From Obrimoposthia wandeli (taxonomy: Eukaryota), in the NCBI GenBank assembly GCA_977020255.1, contig CDROCS010000562.1, forward strand, positions 310,001 through 374,000: a stretch of DNA of 64,000 nt. The letters are read 5' to 3'. Of the stretch, positions 3,384-21,454 are shown in pieces (position 1 is the stretch's first letter; each line of letters opens with the position of its first letter). Below the pieces are notes generated by a model. It was given only the letters and a program-made list of their open reading frames with translations. It ran no database searches and had not been told where the DNA came from. Position numbers and translations under genes: made by a program.

Positions 3384-6300
3384 ATGAATTTAGAAAATGA
3401 GTTGACAACTCCAGTGGTCGAGGTGCCACCAGAACCAGATATAATTCAAATCAGACAAGATGAAGTCACGGATACAGCTAATCAAGCGAGACAAAACGAA
3501 AACGTAACCCAACTAGTAGGAGAAGACGAAATCTCCGAAATTGTAGATTTAGATTCACCAATTTGGCATGCTGCATACAAAGATAGACAAGCAGAGCAGA
3601 TGATGCGACAAAATGAAGAGATTGGCCATGAAGAAGGACCAAGTCAAGAGATACAGTATAATGATGAACCGTATGATCCAGGAGAGAATCAAACTGAGTA
3701 TCAGTATTTTCGAAGAGGACCTGGAAGACCTAGAAAGGACGGAAGTATATTACGAAATGTTCTAACTGCACCACAAACTGATGAAGAGAGACATCTAAGC
3801 ATTGGACAGTTAGCAGCGTCATTAGAGCAGTATAGTGCAGAGAGGAATGAAGATATCAGAGGTGATATGAATTCAGAAGCTCCAAGTAGTAAAGATATAC
3901 TTACGGGAATTCTCAGGCAAGTGAAGCCGAAGTTGTTCAAAATGTACAGAGATGAAACAACCGATATAACAGACAATTTGACTAAAGCAGTTAGATCACA
4001 GATGTCTGCAGTAAAGAGAATGACCGCGAATCATGTATACCATGCATCGATAGATAGATTTTACGACGGTGAAGTTTTAGCGCGATTATGTGGAAACCAG
4101 ACTACAAATAAAAAGTTAATTACAGCAATCACATATCTATGTTTCCAATTGACGGAACGAACGAGCCAACCTCACGAAGTCAAACAAGGAATAAATGAAG
4201 CAATGTATCTGATCGAGAATGTATTACAGAGACGAATTGACGAAAACGGAGGTTGGGCAAAATTAAGTGACTACGCTAAAACCATTGTGGAAATGAATGA
4301 AGACGATGACGAACAATGTCATGAGAATCGTCAAAGAGAAAATAAACAATACCGTCCGAAAGAGAGAAACAATCAACCAAATATGTCCACAACAATGATG
4401 ATGATGATGTTAGTAATGTTCATGGGAATGCAACAGGCATCAGGACTGATAGCATACGACTGTAGCATACCAAAGATGGGACAAAAGTATTCACTGCTTG
4501 ACAGCGAAGACTGTCCAGAATCACAACCGTCAAAACTAGAAGTTAAAGGTGTTGAAAACTACTTTGTGTATCAGGATGTTGATAAAGTACAAGTAGAAGT
4601 GAAAGAATGTTCAATCCATTCAAGTTATCACGAATTCTATTGTGGCCATAGAAGTTTTATGTCGGAAATCACACCTACCACACCGTACAAAGCACATAAG
4701 GTTTTGCCAAGAGATTGCGAAGACGCATTTCGAACAGGAACAATAGAAGTAGACAAGAATTACAAACCTGATGTAAAAATTGGAGTGAGACGATACGAAA
4801 CAGTCACGAGAGTCGGACAACGATGGGCTGATGGATCTTGTGACGGAGGAACAAAAAACGTGCGTGGAACCAAAGTAACCGAGTTAGTAATGGACGTAAC
4901 TTACAAAATCGAATTAAAAACATGGACCGCCAATTTTGATAAAAAGACACAACTAATGATGAAGTATCCAGAATGTAAAATGACAGATACATCTTGTTTT
5001 ACAGGCGAATCCACAATTGTGTATCACGTGAATCCGAAACAATGCTCTTTAGTATTTTTGAAAGAGATTAGCTTTAACAAAATAAAAGGATTCCTGTATA
5101 ATAAAGATGGAGAAGGATTCCTGTATAATAAAGTTGGAAAAGGATTGCTCAATGAAACAAGACCAATTCCAATGACAAAGACACCTACACTGTTAATGGC
5201 AACATCAATAGAAGAAGGATTGATATTTATTAAAAAGAGAAACAAAGCGCGATGTGGAATGACTGTTAGTACTACAAACTATCCTGGAATAGTTTTGTCC
5301 AAAGAAGCAATAGCATTGGCAGAAACCAAGCTAGAACCTAGAGATATGCAGCTACACACGTATTTTAATAATAAAATTGATTTCTATTATCATAAAGGAT
5401 TGATGCAAATGGAACAGTTATATCGGATGATGATCGAAAGAGATTGCCAGCTAAACAAAGAGATCGTAAGAACAAAGTTAGCATTAGCTATTACGAATCC
5501 AGACATGGTAGCACCATTATTACCCTTGGATGAAGGAGTATTTGCTAAAACCATGGGAGAAGTATTGTATACTTACAAGTGTAATAAAGTAGAGGTACAG
5601 TTGAGAAAAACAGATCGATGTACGAGTGAATTGGCAGTAACGTATAATTTAAAAGATCTTTTTGTTGAACCAATCACGAGAATGATACTTCCAAAAGACA
5701 CTCCAACTAAAGAAATCAGCTGCTCTAATATAATGGCACCTGAATATCAGATGACGAATGATCTATGGATAACGTTACCTGATCGAAAGCCAACGAAAAC
5801 CCCAGCGATGATAAAAATGACGAATCTTAAAGGTAAAATGAAATTCGAAGCGGTGGAAAATATGGAGAACGCAGGATTGTACAATGAAAAAGATTTAAAA
5901 GCGGCGTGGAACGAAATAATGTTTCCAGTAAAAAGAGCCAGAGTACTTACGGAGATGGTACATCGAGCATTACCGCCAGGAGCTAGATATGCGAATTTTG
6001 ATATGTTATTATCGCCAAGTCATTTCAAGGAAGCAGCACATCAGACACTTAGAAAGATGTGGGGGAAATTCCTTGTTTTAGGACAACTATTTTCGGGTAT
6101 CATAGGTATTTATGTTATAATTAAATTTGTGCTGGTAATTATAGCCCAGGTGTTGTCTACGTATAGTTTATACAGGATAACCGGAATCACCTGGCAACTT
6201 ATAATTGGATGTTTTCCATTTTTAGCAAAATATCTAATGCACCATCATCACGAGAACGAGTTGCGAGCCCTCAAGAAGGAGCAACATCAAACGAGAACCA

Positions 6301-6986
6301 TGATACGAGACCCAAGAAATTATCGAGACGACAACGACGACGATAACGATAGTCCAGGAGTATATGCAAAGATACCAGGAAAACCAAAGATTCCGTTACC
6401 AGACAAGGAAGAAGTGGCGTTAAACCTATACCCAATGAAGGAACTAAAGGAAGAGAAGGAAAAGTTCAAGAGAGGCATTTTAATGATAAGATGGCCTAAA
6501 GTGAGCTACAGTGAGATTCCACAAGCAGAGGAAAAAGACAAAAAAGATAATTCCAGAAGAATTCTGAAGTCTAGGATATCAAATGAGAATCCAAATGCTC
6601 CACCCCAAGTAGCAGTAACATTGAACGGAAGAGAATATCTTGCCGAAGTTGATACTGGATCCGCAGTATCAGTACTGAGTAAAGAAATCTTGTCATCAAA
6701 AGAATTAAGAGAAGTATGTCCTAGAAAACAGACATTTGTTAACGTAAATGGTACAGATGTAGTGTCGGAAGGAACACTGAAATGTTCATTGAATATCGAT
6801 GGAAGAGCATTGCAGTTAAGTGCTAGAATATTCACAGATTGCGGTAGTCCAGTCATGATTGGGATGGACGTAATAAGAATGTTTGAAGGAATAATTATAC
6901 TACCAAACAACAAGAGTTATAAGAATGACAGTTCAGTGAGAGAGATAAAAATGTTGAGAGGACCTATAGTCGAAAAGAAAAAATAA
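3384..6986 (+). CDS. env: ORF2: acidic N-terminus + AT-hook + Bcl-2-like domain + internal signal peptide + chuvirus-type (class III-like) envelope glycoprotein + TM + retropepsin 1
   Basis: RRGPGRPRK (3711-3737); IDENGGW BH2-like motif (~4236-4256); signal MSTTMMMMMLVMFMGMQQASG then LIAYDC (4446); Cys-spaced ectodomain motifs DGSCDG, RCGMTVSTTNYP, RDCQL, GEVLYTYKC; TM ~6070-6236; protease VDTGSAVS (DTG 6651-6659). Confidence 0.85.
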   Translation: MNLENELTTPVVEVPPEPDIIQIRQDEVTDTANQARQNENVTQLVGEDEISEIVDLDSPIWHAAYKDRQAEQMMRQNEEIGHEEGPSQEIQYNDEPYDPGENQTEYQYFRRGPGRPRKDGSILRNVLTAPQTDEERHLSIGQLAASLEQYSAERNEDIRGDMNSEAPSSKDILTGILRQVKPKLFKMYRDETTDITDNLTKAVRSQMSAVKRMTANHVYHASIDRFYDGEVLARLCGNQTTNKKLITAITYLCFQLTERTSQPHEVKQGINEAMYLIENVLQRRIDENGGWAKLSDYAKTIVEMNEDDDEQCHENRQRENKQYRPKERNNQPNMSTTMMMMMLVMFMGMQQASGLIAYDCSIPKMGQKYSLLDSEDCPESQPSKLEVKGVENYFVYQDVDKVQVEVKECSIHSSYHEFYCGHRSFMSEITPTTPYKAHKVLPRDCEDAFRTGTIEVDKNYKPDVKIGVRRYETVTRVGQRWADGSCDGGTKNVRGTKVTELVMDVTYKIELKTWTANFDKKTQLMMKYPECKMTDTSCFTGESTIVYHVNPKQCSLVFLKEISFNKIKGFLYNKDGEGFLYNKVGKGLLNETRPIPMTKTPTLLMATSIEEGLIFIKKRNKARCGMTVSTTNYPGIVLSKEAIALAETKLEPRDMQLHTYFNNKIDFYYHKGLMQMEQLYRMMIERDCQLNKEIVRTKLALAITNPDMVAPLLPLDEGVFAKTMGEVLYTYKCNKVEVQLRKTDRCTSELAVTYNLKDLFVEPITRMILPKDTPTKEISCSNIMAPEYQMTNDLWITLPDRKPTKTPAMIKMTNLKGKMKFEAVENMENAGLYNEKDLKAAWNEIMFPVKRARVLTEMVHRALPPGARYANFDMLLSPSHFKEAAHQTLRKMWGKFLVLGQLFSGIIGIYVIIKFVLVIIAQVLSTYSLYRITGITWQLIIGCFPFLAKYLMHHHHENELRALKKEQHQTRTMIRDPRNYRDDNDDDNDSPGVYAKIPGKPKIPLPDKEEVALNLYPMKELKEEKEKFKRGILMIRWPKVSYSEIPQAEEKDKKDNSRRILKSRISNENPNAPPQVAVTLNGREYLAEVDTGSAVSVLSKEILSSKELREVCPRKQTFVNVNGTDVVSEGTLKCSLNIDGRALQLSARIFTDCGSPVMIGMDVIRMFEGIIILPNNKSYKNDSSVREIKMLRGPIVEKKK

Positions 6987-6998
6987 ACTACGTTCCGT

Positions 6999-9900
6999 AT
7001 GGGAAATTCGTACCAAGACAAAAAACAGGAAGCGCTAGTAAAGTCGATACTTCACTACAAAAACGTAAACCTCGGACCACAAGAGATGACGAGGAGGAAA
7101 ATAACATATGTGAATCTGTCAGAAAAGGATCCCATGAGATTCGAGAAAAAGAGACGAAATATATTAGAACTGTACTATTCAAAAGAAATGGCACGTAAAA
7201 TGGCAAGATCAGGTTTAGAAATGTTAAACGCGACAAGCAGTTATGGTCATGAGATAGTAGTACGATGCGTATTGTGTAGAGTAAAGTTTAGAGAGTGGGA
7301 AAAGAATGAAAACCCAATGAGACGTCATAAAAGAGATGCACCAAATTGTCCATTTCTTTTGAAACTGAAAACGTCAAACGTACCAGAAATCCAAAAAGGA
7401 AAAGCACCCGATTTCGATTACAGTGACGAGATTCCAAAAGGAGAATCAGCTCTAATAGTAGGCAGAGTAGTAACAAATAGCCGAATTGAAGACATATTCG
7501 AAGTTATGCGAGAAGTGAACGAATGTGACGAACAGTATCGAGAAATAACTTTCGAAGATCCAAGACTTAAAAAATTGGCAAAAAAGGGACTTTTTGCTAT
7601 AAAAAAGGATGGTAAAGACGTAATTAAATGCCACAAGTGTAAAAAAGAACGAATTATCGACAGATATACTCTTGAGCTGCCTAAGAAAATTTTACATCAT
7701 GAATTTTGCGAGTTTTGTATGTTAAAAAACAAAATAAAGCAAAAAGAACAGAAAACCGAATGTATAATCGAATACCAAATCACACGGAAAGAGATCTTGG
7801 CTCAACAGGACACACCGGTAGTGTCATTCGTGAGAAGGTTATATCCAAAAGAAGCAGAAAGAATCAGAGAATTGGTAGAATTAAAAATAAAAACTACGCG
7901 AAACGGATACGGATCGATTTTTGAATTACTGCGAGATAAAGATGACAGTACAATTGAAACAAAAGAGAAAGAGTACATAAATGAACTAGAATACGTACTA
8001 GAAGATCCGGAATGCGCAGTTTGCATGGTCAACAAAATAGAAGTTGCCTTTCTACCATGCGGACATGTAAGAACATGTCGGAGATGTGCGAACGAAATGG
8101 TATCATGTCCAATTTGTCGAAGAATAATAGATCGACAAGTGAGAAACATTAGATTTCACTATCCAAACAAAGGAAGTGGACCGACAGAGTGTAATAATTC
8201 GATAAATACAATATACCATATGGGAAATATAAATGGAGCACAGCGACCAGCAGCTATCATTAGAGTAAATAATTTAAGAGTAAAAGCCTTAATTGATACA
8301 GGTGCTGTAGCTTCGATAGTAAGTGAAGACTGTTTGACAGAAGAACAGAAACGAACAATGGCAGAACCAGATGAATTCTTGGTATCGGTCAATGGAGACC
8401 CTGTTAAAGTGACGGGAATATTACCATGTACATTTATAATTGGACGTAATACGATCACTATACCCGTTAGAATCATGAAAGAATGTCCTGAACCTACAAT
8501 TTTAGGAATGAATGTACTATCTCAACTTAAAGGAATAAGTATTGATTTACAAGATCCAAGATTGAAGGATAGCACATCAAACAGACAAATAAACCAAATT
8601 GATGTAATTATAGAGAATCCTATAAAAATCGGAAAAAGATCACAATTTCTCATTCAAGGTCACACCTTATCAGAAGATAAAGGACCAGTTGTGTTCGAAC
8701 CATCACGAGATTTCATAGAGAAATACGAATTACCAGTTGTAAGTACAGTATGTCTGATTGAAAATCACAAAATACCAGTTAGACTGATGAATACAACCAA
8801 CAATGACATCCTATTATACAGAGGGATGAGGTTTGGAAAGATAGCACAGATGGAGAATCCCACCATGTGTGCTATGAAACTCGATAAAGATACGAATGAT
8901 TACGAAGAAATAGTAATCCAATCAGAAAGACTGACAACTAGAGAAAAGAAACAATTACTTGATCTAATACATAAATTTCCGAAAGTAATTGCAAAAAATC
9001 CATATGACATAGGAGAAACACCTGTCATAAAACATACAATACCACTGACAGAAGACAAAGTAGTCAGAAGAAGACCATATCGAGTACCATTACAGTTACA
9101 AGATGAAGTAAAAAGTCAGATCGAAGATATGTCTAAAACAGGAGTAATTAGACCGAGTTTTTCGCCATTCTCAGCACCTGTGGTGTTGGTAAAAAAGAAG
9201 GATGGGAAAATGAGATTCTGTATAGATTTCAGAGAACTGAACAAGATCACAAGAAAAGATGTGTATCCATTACCTAGAATCGAAGAGATGCTCGATACAT
9301 TGGGTAATTCAGATTTTTTTACAACATTAGATTTGCAGAGTGGATACTGGCAAATCGAGATAGAGGAAGAGGATAAACACAAAACAGCCTTTTCCTGCGG
9401 AGATGGATTATACGAATGCGAAAAGATGCCATTCGGACTGACAGGAGCTCCAGCAACATTTCAGCGTTGCATGAATTTTGTACTCGCATCGTGTGCAAAC
9501 ACGATGGTTTATATCGATGACATAATAATATTTTCGAAAACGTTCGAAGAACATTTAAAAAATCTTGAAGTTGTATTTAAAAGACTGGAAAACGCTAAAT
9601 TAAAAGTTAAACCTACAAAATGCGAATGGGCTAAAGAGCGAGTAACATTTTTAGGACATATAGTATCGAAAGAAGGCATTCGACCTAATCCAGCAAAGAT
9701 CGAGAAAGTAAAAGCGCACTTAGCGCCAAAGACTGTTAAGGAAATACAGAGTTTTTCAGGTCTTGCGAACTATTATAGACGATTTGTTGAACATTTGTCA
9801 GATATAGCAACACCATTGAGAAAGTTGACGAGGAAAGATAAGAAGTTCATATGGGGAGAAGAAGCACAACAAGCGTTCGAGCATTTAAAAGAAAGACTGA

Positions 9901-11666
9901 TAAAAGCACCAATATTAGGGTTTCCAGATATAAATCGAAAATTCATACTAATGACAGATGCAAGTAACTATGCTGTAGGAGCAGTATTGGGACAAGAGGA
10001 TGACGAAGGAAGAGAACACGTCATCGCGTATGCGAGTAGAGGATTAAACAGAGCCGAAAGAGGATACTCTGTTATCGAAAAGGAATGTCTAGCCATAGTG
10101 TATTCATGTAGACAGTACAGACACTATTTGCTAGGACAAAAAGTATTCCTGTATACAGATCACAAACCACTACAGTTCTTATATAAACATAGAGATGAGA
10201 TGAGTAGATTAAACAGATGGTTTCTAAAATTGGCCGAATTCGATCTAGAAATCCGTTATAGAACCGGAAAGTCGAACGGCAACGCAGATTGTTTGTCGAG
10301 ATTGACAAATGTAGACGAGAAAGGAAACATAATTCCAGAAGAAGATGAAACCAATGACCAAAAAGGAGAAGCAAATCTACTGACGATTTTGCTAAAGACG
10401 GGTAAAATAGACAAAGAGATCATCAAAGAACAGAAAGAAGATGAAGAACTGAGTCTAATCAAAGAATTGTTGGTGAATGGAGACCTAAACGATGAAATGA
10501 CGAAAAAATACTCGATAAAAGAAGGAATCTTGTATATTGTCAATAATGTCGGAAAGATAGTAGTAGTAATTCCGAAGTCATTGAAAACAGCAGTGATGAT
10601 CCAGTATCACGATGGAACACTAGGAGGACATCTGTCAGGGCGAAAGACAATAGCCAGAATCAAAGAGAAGTACCATTGGGATGGTATGGAAGACGACATA
10701 AAACAATGGTGTAAACAATGTAAAGTATGTTTAACCAGAAAAGACACCGGAACTCGTACTAAAGTTCCACTGAAACCAATGCCAGTTCCCTTGGCACCAA
10801 TGGAATTCACAGCGATGGATATATTGGGATCATTGAGAGAATCAAGTAAAGGAAACAAGTACGTCATAGTATTTACGGACTACATGACGAGATGGGTAGA
10901 AGCATATCCCATGCAAAACCAGAAAGCTGAAACAATAGCGCAAATCTTAGTGGAAGAGATAATATTTCGATACGGAGTGCCTAGAAAGTTGTTAACGGAT
11001 CAAGGTAAGAACTTCACTGGAGAAGTCATAAAAGCAGTATCGAAGATATTCGGAATCATGAAGTTACAAACTTCACCATATCACCCACAAACAGATGGTC
11101 TAGTAGAAAGGTTTAATAAAACTTTATGTATGATGGTACAATCCTATTGCTCAGACAAGCAAGAGGATTGGGATAAATATTTACCTTCATGTTTATATGC
11201 TTACAGGAATTCAGTTCGAGAGGCGACGGGTCACACACCATTCTATCTGATGTATCTCAGACAGAACAATATGCCGATGGATCTGGAGTGGACCCAGCCA
11301 ACATCTCAGTATCTAGAAACTGAACAATACATTGTCGTCATGAAGGAAAGATTACAAGATGCTTGGACCAAAGCCGGATTGAAGTTGAAATTCAATCAAG
11401 AAGGTTACAAGGAACAATACGACAAAAAAGCAAAACCACATGAATTTAGAGTCGGAGATCAAGTGATGATATTTTATCCAGTCATCGAACCAGGTCTATC
11501 GTTTAAACTGCATAGACCATACAAAGGACCATACAAGGTGATCCAAACAACCTCAACAAATTTGAAAGTAATCAACGAAGAGAATCGGAACAAGGAACCG
11601 ATGATTGTACATGCAAATCGATGTAAATTAGTACCAAATAAAGATAACACGTCACGATATGAGTAA
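6999..11666 (+). CDS. pol: ORF3: IAP module (BIR, degenerate BIR, RING) fused to Pol (retropepsin 2, dUTPase-like spacer, RT, RNase H, integrase)
   Basis: BIR C-x2-C-x16-H-x6-C at 7266-7349; RING CAVC..PCGH..C..C..CPICR at 8013-8132; LIDTGA (8295); RT LDLQSGYWQ, MPFGL, YIDD (9510-9521); RNase H TDAS..GAVL, TDHKPL; integrase H..GH..C..C, MDILG, TDQG, ERFNKTL, GPY. Confidence 0.95.
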   Translation: MGNSYQDKKQEALVKSILHYKNVNLGPQEMTRRKITYVNLSEKDPMRFEKKRRNILELYYSKEMARKMARSGLEMLNATSSYGHEIVVRCVLCRVKFREWEKNENPMRRHKRDAPNCPFLLKLKTSNVPEIQKGKAPDFDYSDEIPKGESALIVGRVVTNSRIEDIFEVMREVNECDEQYREITFEDPRLKKLAKKGLFAIKKDGKDVIKCHKCKKERIIDRYTLELPKKILHHEFCEFCMLKNKIKQKEQKTECIIEYQITRKEILAQQDTPVVSFVRRLYPKEAERIRELVELKIKTTRNGYGSIFELLRDKDDSTIETKEKEYINELEYVLEDPECAVCMVNKIEVAFLPCGHVRTCRRCANEMVSCPICRRIIDRQVRNIRFHYPNKGSGPTECNNSINTIYHMGNINGAQRPAAIIRVNNLRVKALIDTGAVASIVSEDCLTEEQKRTMAEPDEFLVSVNGDPVKVTGILPCTFIIGRNTITIPVRIMKECPEPTILGMNVLSQLKGISIDLQDPRLKDSTSNRQINQIDVIIENPIKIGKRSQFLIQGHTLSEDKGPVVFEPSRDFIEKYELPVVSTVCLIENHKIPVRLMNTTNNDILLYRGMRFGKIAQMENPTMCAMKLDKDTNDYEEIVIQSERLTTREKKQLLDLIHKFPKVIAKNPYDIGETPVIKHTIPLTEDKVVRRRPYRVPLQLQDEVKSQIEDMSKTGVIRPSFSPFSAPVVLVKKKDGKMRFCIDFRELNKITRKDVYPLPRIEEMLDTLGNSDFFTTLDLQSGYWQIEIEEEDKHKTAFSCGDGLYECEKMPFGLTGAPATFQRCMNFVLASCANTMVYIDDIIIFSKTFEEHLKNLEVVFKRLENAKLKVKPTKCEWAKERVTFLGHIVSKEGIRPNPAKIEKVKAHLAPKTVKEIQSFSGLANYYRRFVEHLSDIATPLRKLTRKDKKFIWGEEAQQAFEHLKERLIKAPILGFPDINRKFILMTDASNYAVGAVLGQEDDEGREHVIAYASRGLNRAERGYSVIEKECLAIVYSCRQYRHYLLGQKVFLYTDHKPLQFLYKHRDEMSRLNRWFLKLAEFDLEIRYRTGKSNGNADCLSRLTNVDEKGNIIPEEDETNDQKGEANLLTILLKTGKIDKEIIKEQKEDEELSLIKELLVNGDLNDEMTKKYSIKEGILYIVNNVGKIVVVIPKSLKTAVMIQYHDGTLGGHLSGRKTIARIKEKYHWDGMEDDIKQWCKQCKVCLTRKDTGTRTKVPLKPMPVPLAPMEFTAMDILGSLRESSKGNKYVIVFTDYMTRWVEAYPMQNQKAETIAQILVEEIIFRYGVPRKLLTDQGKNFTGEVIKAVSKIFGIMKLQTSPYHPQTDGLVERFNKTLCMMVQSYCSDKQEDWDKYLPSCLYAYRNSVREATGHTPFYLMYLRQNNMPMDLEWTQPTSQYLETEQYIVVMKERLQDAWTKAGLKLKFNQEGYKEQYDKKAKPHEFRVGDQVMIFYPVIEPGLSFKLHRPYKGPYKVIQTTSTNLKVINEENRNKEPMIVHANRCKLVPNKDNTSRYE

Positions 11667-11714
11667 AGATCACAGAAATCGAAGCCGAATACCAATACCA
11701 TTAAACTTACACGA

Positions 11715-14700
11715 ATGGTAAGTGATCGGAACTACATAAACATGATGACGAGTGGTAGCGAGGAAAAACCAGCGAGAATTGGTATGCTCAGAATGAAGCA
11801 CCAAGAGGAAAAGGAAGTAATCCGACACATCGCACCACAAGAGATATTAGAAGAAGATGAAGAGATAATAGTTGTTTTCGAAAAAACACAACCAACAGAT
11901 GTGGCTAAAGAAGTCATTGTGAAAGATGCACTGACAAACGAATTTCTGTGCGAACTTAGAGTGTCATACTACGACGGAAATACATTAGTCGCAGCACTAT
12001 ATCAAAACTCCAATGTGTTTACGACTGAGAAAGTGATAATCGAAATCACATTGACACCAAACATAGTTGCATGGCAGAACTATGACAGTACTGAAGCAGG
12101 ACTAGCCAGTCAGGAAGAGAAGGAACCGGCCGGTGGTCACATACTGCATGGTACACCAAAAAGACTCAAACAAGAATACCACGATGTAATAATGGTATTA
12201 CGTAATTCACATGGGAAAAGAGATATCATGAGAGTTCATTTAATCGACGCAGACACCGAAAAGATAATTTGTCAGATGGACACCAAATATTTTGACGGAA
12301 AGACAATTGTATGTTGTATACCAGAATCTCACCGGTTAGACACAGATCAAACGGAAGTATCTGTAAGGTTGAGTGTAATAGAAGGATTTCATTCGCCAAA
12401 CCAACCGGAAGTGGCTAACAATAAAATCATCAAAGCAACGGCAGAGTTACGCATTGACAGTGGATACCGGAAGTGGGAAGCTAAAAATAAAAAACCACAA
12501 AGAATCAATATGATCCGAGAACAAGTGACCAACTCAATCCAGCCAAAATATCATGCTGAAATAGTATCATCCGCGCCAAGTGTGATTACATCGATAAACG
12601 ACGAAATTATAATTTTACTAAAAAATCGATGGCCGTCATCAACCGAGATACGAGTAAATTTAATTAATTATGCGAAAACACCGATATCTAAGCTGAATGT
12701 TATCTATTTTGATGGATTGTCCATCATGGGTAAATTGGAAACAATTGTCATGTGCTATGGAGCACAGTTCCAAGTTGAGATACTTAAAGATAGCGTAATA
12801 CCGTATCCGATTCACAAATACGAAGGGGAAATCAATCCAATTATTCTAACCCCTTCATTAATTTCAGTTCAGACAGACATACCAGAATACCCTTCGAGCG
12901 AGTCTAGTCAAGACAGCGAACCAGAAAGTAACGATACAGAATCAACAGAATCCGAAGATAACATGATAGAGCGATTCGGAAAAACCATGGAGGTTGAATT
13001 CGCTAAAGAGAGCAGAAAAAGACAAAACATAGAATTCGTGAAACAGAATATACAAGAAAGACGAATTAAATCTGCAGAAGAGACCGAGTCGGAAGAAGAC
13101 TCAACAAAGGAACAGACATCAGAGACAAAGATGAATATCTCTCCAGCAATACGAATGCTGAGAGGGAAGAAACTGGCAAAACTATCCAACATCGACGAAC
13201 AGATAGAGAAGAGATTAGAAAGACTAAAACTTGAAGAGTCAGAATTATTGCCACCAATGAGCGAGATCATTCCAGATAAGTTATACCTCGGAAATGTGGA
13301 AGATGCAACAGATGAAAAGAAACTGTTGGAACAAGGGATAACATACGTGATCAACGTTACAATGAATCACAAATCGCAATATCAGACAATCAGAGCTATG
13401 ACATTAGGATTAAAAGACTCAATGGACGCTAATCTTCTCGAATGGTTCGTAGAAACAAACGAAATACTTCACAGAGAACTCCGAAACCAAGGAAAAGTGT
13501 TGGTACATTGTCAGAAAGGAATTTCTCGATCAGCAACTCTAGTATTAGCATATCTAATAAAGACTAGACGAATGCAGGTACTAGAAGCGCTAAAATACCT
13601 ACAGGAGAGAAGAAGTATTGCAAACCCAAATCTTAATTTTTTGGGACATTTGGCAAATTACCAACTTCTGTTGCAAGAACAAAGACGGATGGACGACATT
13701 CCTGAGGATCCAAAGGAAAAGAATTTCCTCCAAGCATTATCGTTGACCGGGTTATTCTTAGCCGGAGTCGACAAAATTACACAGATAATGCCAAAAGTAT
13801 TTTTATGTCATCCGGGAGATATAGATACTGCTGGATTAAAGTTCCACAGTATCAACCGAGTAATCAACATTGTTGAAGTCGGAAACGAGATAATTAGTCT
13901 GTGTCAAAATACTGAAGACGACACCACTCGATACATACATGCTTCTAATCGAGAGATAAACGATGCACAACAACATCTGACGAAATTGACTCAAACCATC
14001 CAAGCCGAAGTCACAGAAGGAAACGGCGTTCTGATATATCAGAAAAAAGGTACGATGTTAGCGCCTACCATAGGTGTATCCTTGTTGGTAGAGTACCATG
14101 GTCACACGCCAGAAGAAGCGATGGTCTACATCAAACAGAATAGACCAGATACGGAATTCAAACCGTTACTCGTTCGAGAAATAGAGAAGTACGCCGAAAA
14201 GAGGAAACAGCAACGAGAAACAAATGAAGCTACAACAACAGTGCCCAGCTTTCAATACCAAAGATTGCTAGCGATAGGCTTGTTAAGTTGTCTAATGCCG
14301 ATAACGGGAGCACAAGAGATAGGCTCCAACCACGGAAATAGTTCCTGGTTCAACGAAATCCACAACTACACCATACAGTACCATACGCAGGCACTGATGA
14401 TGCTATTAGTGTTGTTAGGATTAATTGATGTATGGATCATCCGAAAATGTCTCCAATCTATGAGAACCGACAGTAAAAGATTTCAGTTTGTAAAGATGAA
14501 AAGACCAAATGGACCAACGAACAAAGTGCTTGTGTATCTAGACGAAAGGATCGAGGACAACATAGTAAATGAAGCGATATTTTACCCACAAAACAGAATA
14601 CTGAATCAATTCCGAATAGATTACGAAGCTGACCGACAGCGCACACTTGACCGAATATCAACAACATTCGCCGGATGCAAGCGAAGAAAACGAATTGTAA

Positions 14701-16928
14701 AGGAAATACAAAAAGATGCTGATACAAAAGGACCGACGTATATATTCGACGGCGATGTCATCAAAACACGTGAGTATGGAAGTAAGAGAGTGATAATAGA
14801 AACGATGGAAGGACATAAAACATGCTTGTCCGCTAAAAATGGATTCGGAAAGTTGATGATACAAGGTAAACAGGTACAGTTGATTATCGGAAGAAATGGA
14901 ATCGAGGAGATGTCAAAACAACGACAGACAACAAAACGATCCAATCAGAAACAGATATCTCTCAAACGATTGATAATTAAAACCCTTTGCAAAAGGTCAG
15001 TCAAGGCCCTGTGCACCGTTGCACAAGGATTGATCTACGGAGTAGTAATTGGATTAGTACTACAAGCCATGCCAACCAGTAAAGCTGAAATGATGACATT
15101 ATACGAGTATAATCTACATTTGAGAAATCTAGACAACACCCTCGAAATAATCAAGACGTCCCACAGTAAAGCCGTAAGGATCATGTGTGTAAAAGGATGT
15201 CCAGGACGAATGTGTATAGTTCCAGCGACCGAAATGAAAACACTTAATGGACATTATGGAGTTAGTATTGTCACATGTGAAGACTACACATTTGGACAAA
15301 CTAAAATAGTACTTCTCAGTGACATGTCCAACCAAAGTGCACACAAATTTAAAATATTAACCATCAAGAGTAAAGGAATACCAGCAGTACGTTATGGTAT
15401 TCTAGAATTGGTTAATCCAATACTCGCACTGATCATTGGATTCATAATATTAATATTACTCATCTTGTTTTGTTGTACAAAGATAGAGTTGAGATCAAAA
15501 AAGAAACGTCATGATCTCGCAAGACGAACAGGTCAAATGAATTTACAAAAATTCAACACAAGTATACCAAGACCACCATTTCTAGATGAACCAGCACCGG
15601 AGTACCAGCCAACGATATATGAACATATCGAGGAAAGACCGTACTATATGAGTAATCTGAGTTGTTTCATTGAAATTCCTGAGTTTAGGAATCGAACGAT
15701 CATAGGAATCATGCTGATCATACAAATTACCACTACCAAGGCTAGTTATGAAATCATGATCAGTAAATGGAGACAAGATGTAATACGGGCGTTATACATA
15801 GAAATCCCTCTATTAAAAACAAATCACGTAGTAGACATTCATCTACAGACGTCAGCAACCGACAATATCGATCAGAAATTGTATGTCATCCGACAGGTCA
15901 GAATAAAGATCGACAAAAGTACACCCGATTACAACTTAATATTATTCTATCATGAAAGAGTGTTATACCTACGGATAACGATATCAAAAAGGAAGCGGAT
16001 TATCCAAAGTATCCGAACAAAGTCATTAATATTGCCTAGAGATGAGCGCATCTGGAAAATTGTCGACAGGATTATGATCACAGGTAGACGACGTAAAGCC
16101 GTATGGAATTCCGTTAGAATATTTTTCAGATTACTAGAAACTGACAAAGTAACAGTATCGTGTCCCAATCCAGATGGCGGAATCAGATTCGAAATCCAAA
16201 ACCAAATGTTAGTACCACATTTTGATACAGAATGTCTGTGTAATCGAATTCCCAGTAACACTACAGAGACCTCAACCATAATCATGGTAATAACAGGTGA
16301 AATATTCTACATAACTCTAAGATACCAGAACCGTCGATTTCGTAGATCCGGTATAAGTATCAAACCCAGGAAAATCATTCCCAAAAAACCAATCCTAGTC
16401 AAAAAGAAGGCAAAGATAAACGAAAGTAAACCCCATTCCAAAAAGCCGAACGTGATCAGAACAAAGACAGAAGCGAAAGAAAAAGAGCTAAATTCCAGAA
16501 ACCAAAGTACAGTTATTAAGAGGACAAGAGTGAGGGGAACGATCCCACTAGATCCCAAACATCATTTCCAATCCAAAATAATAATACCTGTTCTACCAGA
16601 AACAAAACACCCAAATCCACGAATTTTTAGAAAATCGGACATAATACATGGAAACCGATCAAAACCCATGGAAATGTCATTCGAACCGACAAACAACAAA
16701 ATGAAGTATGATTATCAATCATCAGATAGCGGAGTAACAGCGGTCAATGCTCTAATTGGAATGGCCGTAGTGTCAACAGCAGTGGTTCTATTGACAATCG
16801 TGTGCGTGAAAGGCAGTCAAGTATGCCCAAGAATACGACGAAAATGCGAAGGATTGCGATGCTGTGACAAACCCACCATGGAGGAAGTGGAATTGCGACC
16901 CTTACCTCCGCCTCCCATCAAGATATGA
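11715..16928 (+). CDS. ORF4: accessory polyprotein with 3x IPT/TIG-like repeats, dual-specificity phosphatase, inactive phosphatase copy, and several signal-peptide/TM modules
   Basis: Three ~80-aa repeats with a Y(Y/F)DG core; DUSP IIPDKLYLGN...VLVHCQKGISRSAT (HC at 13506); second DUSP-like domain with VLIYQKKGTMLAP; six hydrophobic segments; ends TGA TAA. Confidence 0.85.
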   Translation: MVSDRNYINMMTSGSEEKPARIGMLRMKHQEEKEVIRHIAPQEILEEDEEIIVVFEKTQPTDVAKEVIVKDALTNEFLCELRVSYYDGNTLVAALYQNSNVFTTEKVIIEITLTPNIVAWQNYDSTEAGLASQEEKEPAGGHILHGTPKRLKQEYHDVIMVLRNSHGKRDIMRVHLIDADTEKIICQMDTKYFDGKTIVCCIPESHRLDTDQTEVSVRLSVIEGFHSPNQPEVANNKIIKATAELRIDSGYRKWEAKNKKPQRINMIREQVTNSIQPKYHAEIVSSAPSVITSINDEIIILLKNRWPSSTEIRVNLINYAKTPISKLNVIYFDGLSIMGKLETIVMCYGAQFQVEILKDSVIPYPIHKYEGEINPIILTPSLISVQTDIPEYPSSESSQDSEPESNDTESTESEDNMIERFGKTMEVEFAKESRKRQNIEFVKQNIQERRIKSAEETESEEDSTKEQTSETKMNISPAIRMLRGKKLAKLSNIDEQIEKRLERLKLEESELLPPMSEIIPDKLYLGNVEDATDEKKLLEQGITYVINVTMNHKSQYQTIRAMTLGLKDSMDANLLEWFVETNEILHRELRNQGKVLVHCQKGISRSATLVLAYLIKTRRMQVLEALKYLQERRSIANPNLNFLGHLANYQLLLQEQRRMDDIPEDPKEKNFLQALSLTGLFLAGVDKITQIMPKVFLCHPGDIDTAGLKFHSINRVINIVEVGNEIISLCQNTEDDTTRYIHASNREINDAQQHLTKLTQTIQAEVTEGNGVLIYQKKGTMLAPTIGVSLLVEYHGHTPEEAMVYIKQNRPDTEFKPLLVREIEKYAEKRKQQRETNEATTTVPSFQYQRLLAIGLLSCLMPITGAQEIGSNHGNSSWFNEIHNYTIQYHTQALMMLLVLLGLIDVWIIRKCLQSMRTDSKRFQFVKMKRPNGPTNKVLVYLDERIEDNIVNEAIFYPQNRILNQFRIDYEADRQRTLDRISTTFAGCKRRKRIVKEIQKDADTKGPTYIFDGDVIKTREYGSKRVIIETMEGHKTCLSAKNGFGKLMIQGKQVQLIIGRNGIEEMSKQRQTTKRSNQKQISLKRLIIKTLCKRSVKALCTVAQGLIYGVVIGLVLQAMPTSKAEMMTLYEYNLHLRNLDNTLEIIKTSHSKAVRIMCVKGCPGRMCIVPATEMKTLNGHYGVSIVTCEDYTFGQTKIVLLSDMSNQSAHKFKILTIKSKGIPAVRYGILELVNPILALIIGFIILILLILFCCTKIELRSKKKRHDLARRTGQMNLQKFNTSIPRPPFLDEPAPEYQPTIYEHIEERPYYMSNLSCFIEIPEFRNRTIIGIMLIIQITTTKASYEIMISKWRQDVIRALYIEIPLLKTNHVVDIHLQTSATDNIDQKLYVIRQVRIKIDKSTPDYNLILFYHERVLYLRITISKRKRIIQSIRTKSLILPRDERIWKIVDRIMITGRRRKAVWNSVRIFFRLLETDKVTVSCPNPDGGIRFEIQNQMLVPHFDTECLCNRIPSNTTETSTIIMVITGEIFYITLRYQNRRFRRSGISIKPRKIIPKKPILVKKKAKINESKPHSKKPNVIRTKTEAKEKELNSRNQSTVIKRTRVRGTIPLDPKHHFQSKIIIPVLPETKHPNPRIFRKSDIIHGNRSKPMEMSFEPTNNKMKYDYQSSDSGVTAVNALIGMAVVSTAVVLLTIVCVKGSQVCPRIRRKCEGLRCCDKPTMEEVELRPLPPPPIKI

Positions 16929-17050
16929 TAAGTCAGAGGAGGTTGTAGATAATTAATGTATGAAATATGTAGAAATACCTAGAAGCAATTGTACAAATAG
17001 TAGAAATATATAAAACTCATGTAGAAATTAATCATCATCATGTATTTAGA

Positions 17051-17350
17051 ATGTCCGAAGAATGCCCAATATGTTTGGAAGATCTAACCGAACGAAGAAC
17101 AAGACCCGAAACCTGCAACCATTTACACCACGAGGAATGTTTATCGACATGGATCAGAACTTATGGACAGTTCGGACATCCAACATACCCTTGTTGCCCT
17201 GTATGCAGAAGACAATTCGCAAGATTCATCATGTTAGAACCCAACCAAGAGGATGTATATGTACAGGTGGTATTCTGTTGGAAGAATTTCGGAGAGTGTT
17301 GGTGTTACTACTGTTTGTCAGAACGACAAAATCCGACCACTTTTGTGTAA
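17051..17350 (+). CDS. Small RING-H2 protein 1 (putative E3 ligase) with C-terminal Cys motif
   Basis: CPIC...CNHLHHEEC...CPVC gives C3H2C3; tail CWKNFGECWCYYC. Confidence 0.85.
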   Translation: MSEECPICLEDLTERRTRPETCNHLHHEECLSTWIRTYGQFGHPTYPCCPVCRRQFARFIMLEPNQEDVYVQVVFCWKNFGECWCYYCLSERQNPTTFV

Positions 17351-17410
17351 ACATCACACAATCACCAGTCCTCAATCGAGCCCAAATTCAACATCAACCC
17401 TCTCACAGTA

Positions 17411-17716
17411 ATGTCTGGAGAATGTTCCATCTGCTACGAGAGCATCGTGGACTTCTACACCAAGCCCAACAACTGCGACCACCTCTTCCACATCGAATGC
17501 CTCGAGACGTGGATTCCCATCGCCAACAGCAACAATCCCCTCGACTTCCCAACCTGCCCGATGTGCAGAGCGACCTTCTCAGTGCACTACGTGTACAACC
17601 AGGACAGCCTCCAAGCAGTGGTACCCATAGTACACTGCTGGAAAACTATCTGCGATTGCTGGTGCTCGTTCTGCGTGGAGGAGCGACGCACAGGCCAGCC
17701 CAATTCCCAGCAATAA
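17411..17716 (+). CDS. Small RING-H2 protein 2 (paralog of RING 1)
   Basis: CSIC...CDHLFHIEC...CPMC; tail CWKTICDCWCSFC; collinear with RING 1. Confidence 0.85.
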   Translation: MSGECSICYESIVDFYTKPNNCDHLFHIECLETWIPIANSNNPLDFPTCPMCRATFSVHYVYNQDSLQAVVPIVHCWKTICDCWCSFCVEERRTGQPNSQQ

Positions 17717-18067
17717 TCGAAGGTAACTTTCTGACTTTGAACGTGACATCATGAACTACCCTGTGTATTGCATACCGCGATAAATTAGCTACCATAATTG
17801 TAATCATAATTGTATAATCTTGTGAAACTGTAAAATGACCATTACCATTTTTATGTATGTTGTTTAACTGAAATTGTAATTATTATACTGAAATTCTAAA
17901 AGACAATTTTTATGCCTAGTGTGAATGTGTAAACATGCCTAAAATCAGAACAAAACTCGGTAGGATTAAAAAACTAAAGGTTCATTTTGAAACTAAAATT
18001 TTAACCTTATAAATTAACGACGAAAACAGTTGAACCCCAAGTTGAAAGGAATCATTTTCTTGTGCAG

Positions 18068-18598
18068 ATGAAGTGTTCAGTATGCAGGGAGAAAATTTGG
18101 ACGGGATCGGCATCCCCTGTCGGCTGCCGTCACAAATTCCACGAGTCGTGCCTCTATTTGTGGGCCAAGGCTCGACCCCCAGGCCAAATCACATGCCCAT
18201 TGTGCCGGGCACCCTTTTGCAAGTGGACGCTCCAGTGCCGTGGACGATCCAAGGGCACCCGATCACCTGCCAGTTGCATTGGTGGCATACACTGCCAGTG
18301 CTACGTGTGTCTCGCACGCCGTCGCGACACACAATTGGGCATCCGCGAGCGATGGCGGTCTAGCCGCGACTGCCATTCATGGTTCCAGGCCAGACGCTTA
18401 TGGATGGAGAACCATGCGCTGAACGGGCAATATTTTGACCTATTTGTCGAGAGCCCGCACCTGACCCGGAGCCAGCAACTACACCTCTACAACGGGGACA
18501 GTCCGTCCTTTCCAGACCTACCCCTGGAGCAGGTCATGCGTTACCTAACTAGTCGGAACCAGCCGACAATTACAATCGATCTTACTAACGACAATTGA
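18068..18598 (+). CDS. RING-H2 protein 3 (diverged paralog with longer C-terminus)
   Basis: ATG at 18068; CSVC...CRHKFHESC...CPLC; tail CIGGIHCQCYVC. Confidence 0.8.
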   Translation: MKCSVCREKIWTGSASPVGCRHKFHESCLYLWAKARPPGQITCPLCRAPFCKWTLQCRGRSKGTRSPASCIGGIHCQCYVCLARRRDTQLGIRERWRSSRDCHSWFQARRLWMENHALNGQYFDLFVESPHLTRSQQLHLYNGDSPSFPDLPLEQVMRYLTSRNQPTITIDLTNDN

Positions 18599-19324
18599 TA
18601 ACATTACATTCTTTCCTCCCTTCTTTCCTTCCTAATTCCTTACTTATCTATGTAGCCATTTTGTGTATAAGTAATAAATTAGTGAATATTTGAGACTCTG
18701 TCCAAATGTTCACTTTTTTAGAAAAAACCGAGTTTCTTTTAAAAGTTTTGGGCATGTTTGATGAATTGAATGACTGATTTTGTAGGGATGGACCTAAAAT
18801 CAACAGCCAGAGGCTTATAAGAGTAAAATCGATACGTTCCGGGGACGTAACTTTTTTGGAACCCCCGAGATATGTTAGATTTAGGAATTGAGAAATTATT
18901 AAAAAAATTAAATAATTTATACTAAAATAAAATCCTTGAAAGCAAGGTTGAAAATTAAATATTTAAAATTAAGTTAAAATATTAGAGGATAAAATCAGGG
19001 GTAAATATTAATAGGACCACGAAGGTCGTGTGTAGTGTGTCGTATATATAGGTTAAGATTATTAATACAAAAGTGCAAAATAAGAATAAGACTTAATTAG
19101 GGGAAACTAAGAAGAAAAATCAAGAAAGAAATTAATCAAGGAAAGAAGAAATTATCGTTTAATTTTCCACCTGCCAAATTGTTTCGGCGCAGCACTCGTT
19201 ATATCGACTATTGTGTTTTCAGCTGTCTAGGATCGACAGTAGCGCTCGAGCCTAAGAGGAAAAAAGTAATTAGATTAAATCTATAAATTTTACTTAATTG
19301 CTTAGCAGCTGATTTTATATCGAC

Positions 19325-19404
19325 TATATAAGTCGCCCCAATCAATTGTCAGAAAAAGAAAGGATTCTAGCCGAGACACACACAGCGGAAAAGAGCTGGT
19401 AAGC
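19325..19404 (+). promoter_or_regulatory. TATA-like box and downstream 5' splice donor in the putative LTR
   Basis: TATATAA at 19325-19331; CTG|GTAAGC with GT at 19399-19400. Confidence 0.45.
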
Positions 19405-19487
19405 GTGTCTAATTTGAGTTAGATTAATTCCGGCATTTTTATAGAAATCTGAAATTTACCAATCCTGAAATATTTACCCATCCTGCC

Positions 19488-19883
19488 ATCAATTTGAATC
19501 CAGTATTATCAATTTGAATCCAGTATTATCAATTTGAATCCAGTATTATCAATTTGAATCCAGTATTATCAATTTGAATCCAGTATTATCAATTTGAATC
19601 CAGTATTATCAATTTGAATCCAGTATTATCAATTTGAATCCAGTATTATCAATTTGAATCCAGTATTATCAATTTGAATCCAGTATTATCAATTTGAATC
19701 CAGTATTATCAATTTGAATCCAGTATTATCAATTTGAATCCAGTATTATCAATTTGAATCCAGTATTATCAATTTGATCCAGTATTCTCAATTTGAATCC
19801 AGTATTATCAATTTGAATCCAGTATACTCAACTGCATCCAGTATACTCAACTGCATCCAGTACGCTCAGCTGAATCCAGTTTG
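19488..19883 (+). repeat. 20-bp tandem array (~20 units) inside the LTR
   Basis: atcaatttgaatccagtatt x14 perfect (19488-19767), then progressively diverged units. Confidence 0.98.
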
Positions 19884-19957
19884 CTCTACCGATCCCGCGC
19901 CAGCCGATCTCGAGACTAGAAAACGTAAGAGAGATTAGTAGGGCCAAGAGTTGAGGG

Positions 19958-20483
19958 TTACCCATTTTCTGATTTACATTAATTTTGGAAAAATTGAAAG
20001 TTACCCATTTTTGATTTACATTAATTTTGGAAGAATTGAAAGTTACCCATTTTTTGATTTACATTAATTTTGGATAAAATTGAATTACCCATTTTCCGAG
20101 TTACATTAATTCCGGATAACATTGAATTAACCATTTTCTGATTTACATTAATTTTGGATAAAATTGAATTACCCATTTTCCGAGTTACATTAATTCCGGA
20201 TAACATTGAATTAACCATTTTCTGATTTACATTAATTTTGGATAAAATTGAATTACCCATTTTCCGAGTTACATTAATTTCGGATAACATTGAATTAACC
20301 ATTTTCTGATTTACATTAATTTTGGATAACATTGAATTACCCATTTTCTGAGTTACATTAATTTCGGATAACATTGAATTAACCATTTTCTGATTTACAT
20401 TAATTTTGGATAACATTGAATTACCCATTTTCTGATTTACATTAATTTTGGATAAAATTGAATTGCCCATTTTTTGATTTACA
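19958..20483 (+). repeat. 42-bp tandem array (~12.5 units) with partial 84-bp higher-order structure
   Basis: Variants ttaaccattttctgatttacattaattttggataaaattgaa and ttacccattttccgagttacattaattccggataacattgaa alternate. Confidence 0.97.
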
Positions 20484-20745
20484 ATAATTATTGATATAAA
20501 GATAAAAGTTTACCCTCCAAGTAGTAAAGTTGACATTAAAGTTAAATTGATTGAAAAAGCTATAACTTGAGCTTATTCGCGAGTTAGAGGAACGACTCTA
20601 AAAAACTCGACTAACTTTACATAAAATCGATACGTGGTTCATCCCCACTTTTTGTAGAGACTTACAGAAGTCTTAGGAATTTTTACTATACTTTTTAGAA
20701 AATACGTACATAAACGTATTGTTGTGTTCAGTTTAGTGTGCTACC

Positions 20746-20751
20746 AATAAA
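20746..20751 (+). terminator. Polyadenylation signal in the putative LTR
   Basis: AATAAA ~150 bp before the inferred LTR end. Confidence 0.4.
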
Positions 20752-20904
20752 CGATTTCCTACATTAGAACACGTTGTTTTTAAACCCTTCAGATTAAGAG
20801 ACGTCAAACCAAACACCTTCAGATAAGAAAAAGAGATAACACTAAACCATAACACTAAGTAGGCCACGACCAACTTTAAGACCTGCTTCTATTCGAACTC
20901 ACGT

Positions 20905-20916
20905 TGGGGCTCTCCG
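20905..20916 (+). promoter_or_regulatory. Degenerate primer-binding site (tRNA-Pro-like)
   Basis: TGGGGCTCTCCG resembles TGGGGGCTCGTCCG, the complement of the tRNA-Pro 3' end; it directly follows the inferred LTR end. Confidence 0.5.
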
Positions 20917-21049
20917 CACATAAGAGGATCTATACAAGTCTCGTATAGAAACCCCAACAAAATAATTAAGAGAGAATAAGATATATAAAAACAGAATTGA
21001 ATTAAGAATACGATAAGTAATAAGTGAATTAATACGGGAATAAGTAAAT

Positions 21050-21454
21050 TGATATAAAGAGTTCGTAAAATAATAAATTGAGTAATCAAAATATAAAATA
21101 TTAAAAAGTAATAAGTAAATTGAAGTTGTTGAGATATAAGTGAATACATAATTGACAAGATAGTGGATAATCATTGAGAACCCGCATTTAATACTAGAAG
21201 ACAGAGTCGAGATGATCAGATTCCTCGAGTAAATAAAGATGTTACATAAGTATTTCAAGTCGAAGATGTTGAAGAAACAGTATCTGAAAGATACATTAAT
21301 TATTTGACGAAGTAAATCAAGTAGATATCCAGGAAAGATTGAAGAAGCTAATTTGAACGATATTGAAGACATAATTGAGGAAAATGTGGCTAACGCAGCT
21401 ATGAATGTGGAATAGTTAGTGCAAGCATTGAATGTGATGTTGAGATCCAATTTT
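21050..21454 (+). pseudogene. Decayed copy of the leader and gag 5' end from a related element
   Basis: Homologous to ~455-955: PAFNTRRQS vs PAYNTRRQS; MNVE*LVQALNVMLRSNF vs MNAEQLAQAINATLRPNF; contains stops and indels. Confidence 0.85.

Follow-up and report, generated by a model that had tools for sequence, protein, structure and literature searches.

Three small RING-H2 genes with a shared four-cysteine tail in a giant env-bearing Ty3/gypsy element

RING ligases of viruses and ubiquitin-related domains of giant gypsy elements are both already known. Burro/GYPSM1 of planarians is an element of the second kind. According to the accessible part of its description (PMC6431247), it has a mononegavirus-fusion-type env between gag and pol, a BIR, and a ubiquitin/SUMO-like domain behind Gag. 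Its polyprotein is 4,873-5,140 aa, its internal region is up to 25 kb, and it has many copies and accessory ORFs. The same text reports very high copy numbers for giant gypsy elements, and proposes interference with host apoptosis and ubiquitination by such domains, which was not tested there; the "RING Zn-finger" that it mentions is an AIR1 motif.

Two further kinds of gypsy-type element can be compared. GAG-ENV-POL errantiviruses with an HSV/gB-type env have a gag-env-pol order, a class III env, a Ty3/gypsy pol and multiple copies, and the accessible text (PMC13524379) reports them from nematodes, bryozoans and flatworms. Cer1 of C. elegans encodes CERV, an accessory protein made from a spliced RNA and carrying a candidate C4 finger (PMC10309623, in its accessible part). 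Among viral ligases, herpesvirus ICP0 contains a RING and SIM-like motifs, has SUMO-targeted activity and overcomes SUMO-dependent repression (PMC3174244, accessible part).

Here we describe three small RING-H2 genes, RING1, RING2 and RING3, in a 64,000-nt stretch of Obrimoposthia wandeli DNA (assembly GCA_977020255.1, contig CDROCS010000562.1, positions 310,001 to 374,000, forward strand), which is called the window below. Features are collected in Table 1.

Table 1. Coordinates of the features in the window
Feature	Position	Strand	Description
gag-like ORF	846..3269	+	CCHC knuckle; weak ubiquitin-like domain at end
env with aspartyl protease-like domain	3384..6986	+	Monjiviricetes_fusion PF24664, E 2e-95
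BIR, IAP-type C3HC4 RING, PR-RT-RNase H-integrase	6999..11666	+	Ty3/gypsy order
1737-aa ORF	11715..16928	+	three beta-rich repeats, dual-specificity phosphatase, 4 hydrophobic segments
Acceptor-like pyrimidine tract and YAG	17033..17049	+	1 nt before RING1 ATG; putative use
RING1	17051..17350	+	99 aa; RING-H2, predicted hairpin, four-Cys tail
RING1 tail C-x6-C-x-C-x2-C	17276..17314	+	residues 76-88
Acceptor-like tract and YAG	17392..17408	+	2 nt before RING2 ATG; putative use
RING2	17411..17716	+	101 aa; RING-H2, predicted hairpin, four-Cys tail
RING2 tail C-x6-C-x-C-x2-C	17636..17674	+	residues 76-88
Acceptor-like tract and YAG	18051..18067	+	abuts RING3 ATG; putative use
RING3	18068..18598	+	176 aa; RING-H2, four-Cys tail, basic region, SIM-like end
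RING3 tail C-x5-C-x-C-x2-C	18275..18310	+	residues 70-81
SIMb-like motif TIDLT	18572..18586	+	RING3 residues 169-173, 3 residues before stop; possible SUMO binding
Probable 3′ LTR	19180..20904	+	20-nt and 42-nt tandem arrays; putative limits, 5′ LTR outside window

The element and its copies

The element was longer than 21 kb and multi-copy. It showed the PR-RT-RNase H-integrase order and the CCHC Gag of Ty3/gypsy elements, and, like the GAG-ENV-POL elements with a gB-type env, it carried a class III env between gag and pol. Its four large ORFs shared one frame of 5,361 codons with three single stops, a scale similar to that of the Burro polyprotein. In six of the 120 pol relatives listed, env and pol were present in a single protein, and the element family therefore probably makes one polyprotein. 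Eleven of these relatives were 55-61% identical, nearly all of them metagenome-assembly proteins, and none of the 120 was named Burro. Behind the LTR, at about 20930-21480, leader and gag-start sequence recurred in decayed form, with 64-76% identity.

Several domains suggest a ubiquitin and apoptosis context within the same element. As in Burro, a BIR was present (Pfam 37.1 bits, cut-off 22.9), and it preceded an IAP-type C3HC4 RING at residues 339-373 of the 6999-11666 ORF (44.3 bits, cut-off 27). The original prediction had counted this RING together with the three small genes as four candidate E3 ligases, and the count stood. The combination of BIR, ubiquitin/SUMO-like domain and env between gag and pol known from Burro was also found, the ubiquitin-like domain with which Gag ends being a weak match (E 0.0034, below the Pfam cut-off). 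The phosphatase of the 11715..16928 ORF retained its catalytic motif, and a second phosphatase copy was degenerate.

The element differs from Burro in several respects. Within the limits of the window, its internal region measured about 19 kb, and the phosphatase region after the integrase belongs to the present element. The Burro domains MATH, BCL2-like, dUTPase-like and ankyrin were not found in it by Pfam at E up to 0.1. The three stand-alone 3′ RING-H2 genes have no counterpart mentioned for Burro in the accessible part of PMC6431247. The element is Burro-like in layout but, judged by the published description and Pfam domain content, does not appear to be a Burro.

Related elements were sought in several collections. 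With the BIR-RING-PR part of pol as the query, none of 6,698 candidates was confirmed at E<=1e-10, and no neighbourhoods of related elements were found in viral contigs. GTDB gave 14 loci, which were mostly distant gypsy elements, and none of them matched the RING profile. "Burro" as a whole word occurred 0 times in PMC11592408.

Many other copies were detected. For positions 14000-19300, 124,000-134,000 contigs matched at 80-100% identity in three runs of one sample, a large and diverse repeat family for which contig counts give no copy number. A marine metagenome contained 30 matching pieces. Summed contig depth dropped from 17894 onward and was unsuited to ranking the genes. Loose ends of contigs at 18157 in three of the four runs extended RING3 in frame with the Trp kept, as judged by eye, which suggests diverged copies. 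Ten contigs, a minority, had a one-base deletion in RING3 at 18215, which accounted for about 5% of the depth in run X1.

The other copies bear on whether the RING genes are decaying, or are passengers that do nothing for the element. The copy in the window looks aged, as this reading would have it: at least 90% of depth carried another letter at 20 of the 40 sites listed, and the long frame has its three stops. No RNA data set was listed as carrying the sequence, nor did any transcript come to light, a result uninformative on expression. Against it, all ligands were intact in all three genes despite 26-39% identity among them. Contigs of other copies covered all three genes in three of the four runs, all from one sample. 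Five of the 40 copy differences listed (from 376) fell in the RING ORFs. Four were in RING3 and were all synonymous, one was an Ile/Val exchange in RING2, and RING1 had none. No Cys or His ligand codon was changed among these 40. We therefore give the passenger reading hardly any weight. The original prediction had named conservation in other copies as a check, and the results were consistent with it over the part of the differences seen, 40 of 376.

Three small RING-H2 genes

With the long polyprotein frame upstream and the probable 3′ LTR downstream, RING1, RING2 and RING3 were intact ORFs from ATG to stop. They are accessory genes in the 3′ part of this giant Ty3/gypsy element with an env. 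RING2 was in the frame of RING1, with one stop and 20 open codons between them. In Pfam, zf-RING_2 scored 37.5, 35.7 and 31.6 bits in RING1, RING2 and RING3, respectively, against a cut-off of 27.3 bits. The pattern C-x2-C-x13-C-x-H-x2-H-x2-C-x3-W-x14/14/10-C-P-x-C-R was read in RING1/RING2/RING3, so that the RINGs are C3H2C3, and the RING-H2 ligand order C-C-C-H-H-C-C-C with RING spacing was present in all three. The ORFs, the Pfam scores and this ligand pattern bore out the prediction of three small C3H2C3 genes.

In 3/3 genes, the central helix kept its Trp and the final RING Cys was followed by Arg. In the RING-H2 ligase Arkadia, the Trp contacts the E2 and the "linchpin" Arg holds E2~ubiquitin in the closed state (PMC9954413, accessible part). 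Each of the three RINGs would very probably bind host E2~ubiquitin and act as an E3 ligase.

The prediction had also described the three genes as diverged paralogs. For RING1 and RING2 this held: they were 39% identical over 93 aa (E 2e-21), and on sequence comparison can be regarded firmly as paralogs. RING3 was 26-32% identical to RING1 and RING2, and its RING core did not settle the matter. In a ranking of RING cores against that of RING3, RING2 came 17th and RING1 48th among 62 others, and in a RING-core tree, made by a quick method with 60 of the best 150 profile hits, a single clade of the three was neither rejected nor supported (AU p 0.68). No DNA-level similarity was left among the three genes. 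The spacing, the tail and the adjacency of the genes suggest that RING3 may be a paralog as well. RING3 also has a basic region with 14 R/K within residues 51-112.

An AlphaFold2 model of RING2 was made from the three-sequence alignment; the best of five models had a mean pLDDT of 74.7 and the others 37-55. Residues 1-30 had pLDDT 85-92 and residues 51-70 had 89, with a predicted hairpin at 58-72 and a predicted helix at 86-94. A single-sequence model of RING3 had pLDDT 38 and was unusable. The best viral fold matches of the RING2 model were baculovirus PE38, IE2 and CG30 (E 8e-5 to 4e-4), and herpesvirus ICP0 matched at E 1e-3. These matches spanned 60-120 columns at 11-38% identity, so they indicate the same fold and not descent. 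PDB fold matches were generic RINGs only (best E 0.024), with Z at most 6.9 and confined to residues 1-77; the fold searches scarcely probed residues past 70. A PDB sequence match to the EHV-1 RING covered profile positions 2-57 only.

In the ESM Atlas, the nearest clusters (scores 0.91-0.94) consisted of small viral RING proteins, 83-196 aa long. The likeness to baculovirus PE38, IE2 and CG30 and to small RING proteins of giant viruses was in the RING only, with low identity in the fold matches, and the tail was found in none of the fetched loci. In the fold matches, the genes share with the ICP0 family a RING at the N-terminus and, behind it, a hairpin-like extension; the family is one of virus-encoded ligases. 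The ICP0 RING is C3HC4. ICP0-family proteins in the matches were 260-820 aa and 17-27% identical, whereas RING1-3 are far shorter RING-H2 proteins with a four-cysteine tail. CERV also differs from the present proteins, being a 517-aa RNA-export factor and not a RING ligase, with differently spaced cysteines (C193, C195, C200, C269; PMC10309623, accessible part).

Two other candidates in this region were not accepted. One was an F-box in RING3 (E 0.02-0.08 over 17 residues, below the Pfam cut-off). The other was an overlapping 230-codon ORF at 17062-17754, which was open in 0.3% of synonymous shuffles (p 0.024 and 0.13 per gene, 15 frames tested) and gave no Pfam match above the cut-off. Rfam had 0 matches in 16500-21500.

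The four-cysteine tail

The tail motif C-x5/6-C-x-C-x2-C claimed by the original prediction was found in each gene exactly as quoted, with x6, x6 and x5 in RING1, RING2 and RING3. The predicted distance of about 20-25 aa after the RING was right as a range, and the actual one was tighter: the first Cys of the tail came 23 residues after the final Cys of the RING in 3/3 genes. When each post-RING stretch of 46-47 residues was shuffled 100,000 times, the pattern arose in 0.06%, 0.2% and 0.6% of shuffles, percentages that overstate significance because the pattern was derived from the very sequences shuffled. Elsewhere in the six frames of the window it occurred at one site, 58718, in a stop-rich frame.

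The original prediction proposed the tail as a candidate second metal-binding or substrate-binding module. Four tail cysteines at fixed spacing, with C-x2-C followed by a helix, are most simply read as a zinc site on general zinc-finger chemistry. It is fairly likely that the four cysteines hold a third Zn, so that the hairpin would end in a small knuckle and helix which select substrates or partners. In the RING2 model, tail residues 76-82 had pLDDT under 50 and were the worst-modelled part.

The low confidence of this stretch, together with the abundant aromatic and aliphatic residues around the cysteines of RING1 and RING2, would also suit another role, in which the cysteines are S-acylation or redox sites tethering the ligases to membranes and bind no metal. 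This reading is very improbable: the exact 23-residue distance and the fixed C-x-C-x2-C in all three genes fit a folded ligand geometry better, and the RING3 tail is less hydrophobic.

Returning to the tail as a zinc site, we searched for proteins that carry it behind a RING. A word-indexed search with the three-sequence alignment found RING and tail together in none of 29 candidates. A profile search of 1.84 billion representatives gave 3,707 matches at E<=0.001, and none of the best 150 of them had C-x-C-x2-C within 60 residues of the RING. In a leave-one-out calibration, RING1 (82 bits) and RING2 (85 bits) exceeded the best-domain score of every match (56 bits). RING3 scored 36 bits, under the floor of the match list at 47.5, so this search rules out close relatives only and would miss relatives at the distance of RING3.

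Contig collections gave similar results. In viral contigs 6 of 96 candidates were confirmed, with the RING core only, and in metagenome contigs 100 of 379 were confirmed, of which the best 80 were retained. None of the 123 RING matches in the resulting 86 loci had the tail. As for a well-known host RING family, which the prediction had raised as a check, neither these 123 RINGs nor the 150 best profile matches included one with the tail. Scans with the tail only confirmed 0 of 71 candidates in viral contigs and 0 of 5 in GTDB genomes, a tail profile run against 14,494 sequences had a best E of 0.91, and phage records and PHROGs contained nothing matching. The exact RING1-3 proteins were absent from a 15-billion-sequence collection, in keeping with the poor coverage of genes inside animal repeats by the collections searched.

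In Pfam, the tails of RING1 and RING2 matched nothing, and that of RING3 matched only YqgG (E 0.027), with no family above the cut-off. The tail score in ESM Atlas (0.78) was judged not credible. No library tested would assign the tail to a named family, in agreement with the prediction. No homologue of the tail turned up outside the element family in these searches, so that its conservation rests on three sequences.

Another possible source of the tail is a captured host gene, of the RING-PHD (PHRF1/SCAF11-like) or double-RING type, that was truncated behind the first C-x2-C of its second finger; the tail would then be a remnant and not a new fold. In hhalign, the C-x2-C of the tail aligned with the C-x2-C that comes first behind the RING in P0062, a RING protein of Caenorhabditis angaria (probability 91%, E 1e-6 overall); the second finger of this protein may be a PHD by our reading of its Cys pattern. 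A Pro three residues before the third Cys was present in 3/3 genes and in 16 of 138 parsed matches, also in double-RING proteins such as P0003 (Hymenolepis). GC3 was 0.77 in RING2 and 0.64 in RING3 against 0.30-0.37 in the large ORFs, which suggests capture from elsewhere. The hhalign score, however, stems from the RING, with a column confidence of 2-7 of 9 in the tail. The C-x-C pair is unmatched, and C-x-C-x2-C was behind the RING in 0 of the 150 best matches. Pfam PHD was not detected in the tails at E up to 10, and only four conserved cysteines follow the RING, not a complete PHD finger. We regard an origin as such a remnant as quite improbable.

Acceptor-like sites, the SIM-like end and possible roles

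A pyrimidine tract with YAG, as at a splice acceptor, lay 0-2 nt before each RING start. Under an acceptor rule set after viewing the sequence, 4 of 441 ATGs in the element fitted, three of them being the starts of RING1-3; in the flanks 7 of 778 (0.9%) and 17 of 763 (2.2%) fitted, and none of the starts of the four large ORFs did. The offset between acceptor and ATG differs among the three genes, so that a shared upstream exon would be non-coding. No matching splice donor was found in the leader by a strict pattern. These sites suggest spliced subgenomic RNAs or trans-splicing, and each RING gene would quite likely be translated from its own spliced subgenomic RNA, with the acceptor just before the ATG. 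TATA-like words 44 nt before RING1 and 60 nt before RING3, and AATAAA after RING3, allow own promoters as an alternative to splicing.

The C-terminus of RING3 reads TIDLT-NDN, similar to the PIAS SIMb core VIDLT (PMC3901395). A scan for [IV]DLT, the only pattern used and one chosen after viewing the sequence, gave this one site. It occurred in 0.25% of RING3 shuffles anywhere and in 0.023% within the last 15 residues. Among the other element ORFs, RING1 and RING2 included, 0 of 6 contained it, as did none of the best 150 of the 3,707 RING matches. A RING and a SIM-type motif in one protein, the architecture of SUMO-targeted ubiquitin ligases, were found in RING3 only, where the candidate SIM parallels the SIM-like motif of ICP0 (PMC3174244, accessible part). 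Binding through one SIM is weak, and RNF4 relies on several of them (PMC3901395). We treat TIDLT, one short motif found post hoc, as a lead only. The original prediction included neither the acceptor-like sites nor this end of RING3.

Drosophila piRNA-guided silencing requires SUMO (bioRxiv 10.1101/533091, accessible part). RING3 could, tentatively, reach SUMO-modified targets through its SIM-like end, a step that we put at somewhat below even. As to what the three ligases target in general, there is about an even chance that it is host restriction factors of the element, for example ones involved in silencing, innate immunity or cell death. The action would resemble that of ICP0, IE2 and PE38, small RING ligases encoded by large DNA viruses, with no apparent membership in those families.

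Ubiquitin helps retroviral budding. The ligases might accordingly act on the Gag or processed polyprotein of the element itself, for ESCRT-type budding or turnover, and the envelope gene and the ubiquitin-like domain at the end of Gag would fit this. We consider it unlikely, since the divergence of the three genes, together with the basic region and SIM-like end of RING3, better fits several host targets, and such a RING was present in the same protein in none of the 120 pol relatives listed.

Taken as a whole, we lean slightly towards the view that these are accessory E3 ligases, made from spliced RNAs and bearing a third zinc site, that act against host defence proteins. A stricter combination is rather unlikely, namely that RING3 is a transposon-borne SUMO-targeted ligase removing SUMO-modified silencing factors as ICP0 does, that RING1-3 pick substrates with an undescribed four-cysteine zinc module, and that spliced subgenomic RNAs, like those of complex retroviruses, give rise to all three.

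In the titles and abstract openings listed from the open-licence literature, no description of stand-alone RING-H2 genes in a gypsy element was found, nor were acceptor-preceded RING-H2 triplets with this tail, the GAG-ENV-POL errantivirus survey included. The words "finger" and "ubiquitin" occurred 0 times in the accessible part of PMC5408684.

If only the basic reading holds, the locus is another example of RING cargo in a mobile element. If the tail folds around zinc, it would be a small new RING-flanking module. RING1-3 are stand-alone proteins of 99-176 aa, and thus the idea that giant gypsy elements meddle with their hosts would be easy to test in vitro.

Long polyprotein frame and its domains

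The four large ORFs of the element lie in a single frame of 5,361 codons (846-16928), which is interrupted by three stops, each of them single, at the ORF ends 3269, 6986, and 11666. The size of this frame is like that of the polyprotein of Burro, the giant planarian Ty3/gypsy elements (PMC6431247), and env and pol are fused in one protein in relatives. The end of Gag carried a weakly matching ubiquitin- or SUMO-like domain (Pfam E 0.0034), for which the PDB search gave matches to ubiquitin and SUMO2 (SUMO2 E 0.09). Such a domain at the Gag end is common to the element and Burro. Two aspartyl-protease-like domains were found, and more than one was also found in P0198 and P0207, database proteins related to the pol of the element.

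Another relative, P0204, is an env-pol polyprotein with 59% identity to the RT region of the element. Its database source is a Flavobacteriaceae MAG, and it is probably animal DNA inside a bacterial bin.

Positions of features in the window
Feature	Position	Location
Tandem arrays, 49-nt and 111-nt units	1-459	leader
Ubiquitin- or SUMO-like domain, weak	2967-3266	end of Gag
Aspartyl-protease-like domain, first	6600-6890	end of env ORF
Aspartyl-protease-like domain, second	8240-8540	in pol
Beta-rich repeats	11820-12830	1737-aa ORF
Dual-specificity phosphatase	13281-14210	1737-aa ORF
Poxvirus 2L N-terminal domain, weak	15060-15500	1737-aa ORF
Overlapping ORF	17062-17754	RING1 and RING2
T-x-V	17336-17347	RING1 C-terminus
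Tandem array, 20-nt unit, 19 copies	within 19488-20496	probable LTR
Tandem array, 42-nt unit, 13 copies	within 19488-20496	probable LTR
Primer-site-like word, decayed leader and gag start	20905-21480	
Host-like gene	23355-25001	
428-nt unit, two copies	34623-35479	
DDE_1 transposase fragment	47862-48329	

The 1737-aa ORF after integrase

A beta-rich unit of about 90 aa recurs in this ORF as three diverged repeats (22-24% identity). One of them matched P0198 directly ahead of the ankyrin repeats of that protein (E 2e-4); no credible match was found in Pfam or PDB. To us, the repeats are reminiscent of the DBB/IPT domain in BCAP-type adaptors.

The dual-specificity phosphatase, an unusual cargo in a retroelement, has an intact catalytic motif (residue 598 of the ORF), and a degenerate second copy lies behind the first within the same region (E 1e-6, below the cut-off). 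The match to the poxvirus 2L domain (PF21584, E 0.0026) was also below the cut-off, and the matching stretch is flanked by hydrophobic segments.

Neighbouring decayed copy and rest of the window

Downstream of the probable LTR, a primer-site-like word, which we take to be similar to the tRNA-Pro 3' end, is followed by a decayed leader and gag start with 64-76% identity to 332-978. Judged by this sequence, the decayed copy appears to be an older relative adjoining the present one.

Elsewhere, an intronless host-like gene encodes 548 aa with a Cys-rich N-terminus and a secretin-family 7TM domain (E 3e-6). A DDE_1 transposase fragment (E 1e-16) was also present. The two perfect head-to-tail copies of the 428-nt unit are either a recent duplication or an assembly artefact.

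RING gene region

RING1 ends in T-x-V, which has the pattern of a class I PDZ-binding motif; the match is short and may be due to chance. A 230-codon ORF overlaps RING1 and RING2, and was open in 0.3% of synonymous shuffles; nothing in Pfam matched it above the cut-off. This ORF is probably not a gene.

Over 17411-18598, GC3 was 0.77 in RING2 and 0.64 in RING3, whereas RING1 had 0.41 and the large ORFs lay at 0.30-0.37, which suggests that RING2 and RING3 may have another origin or another age of capture.
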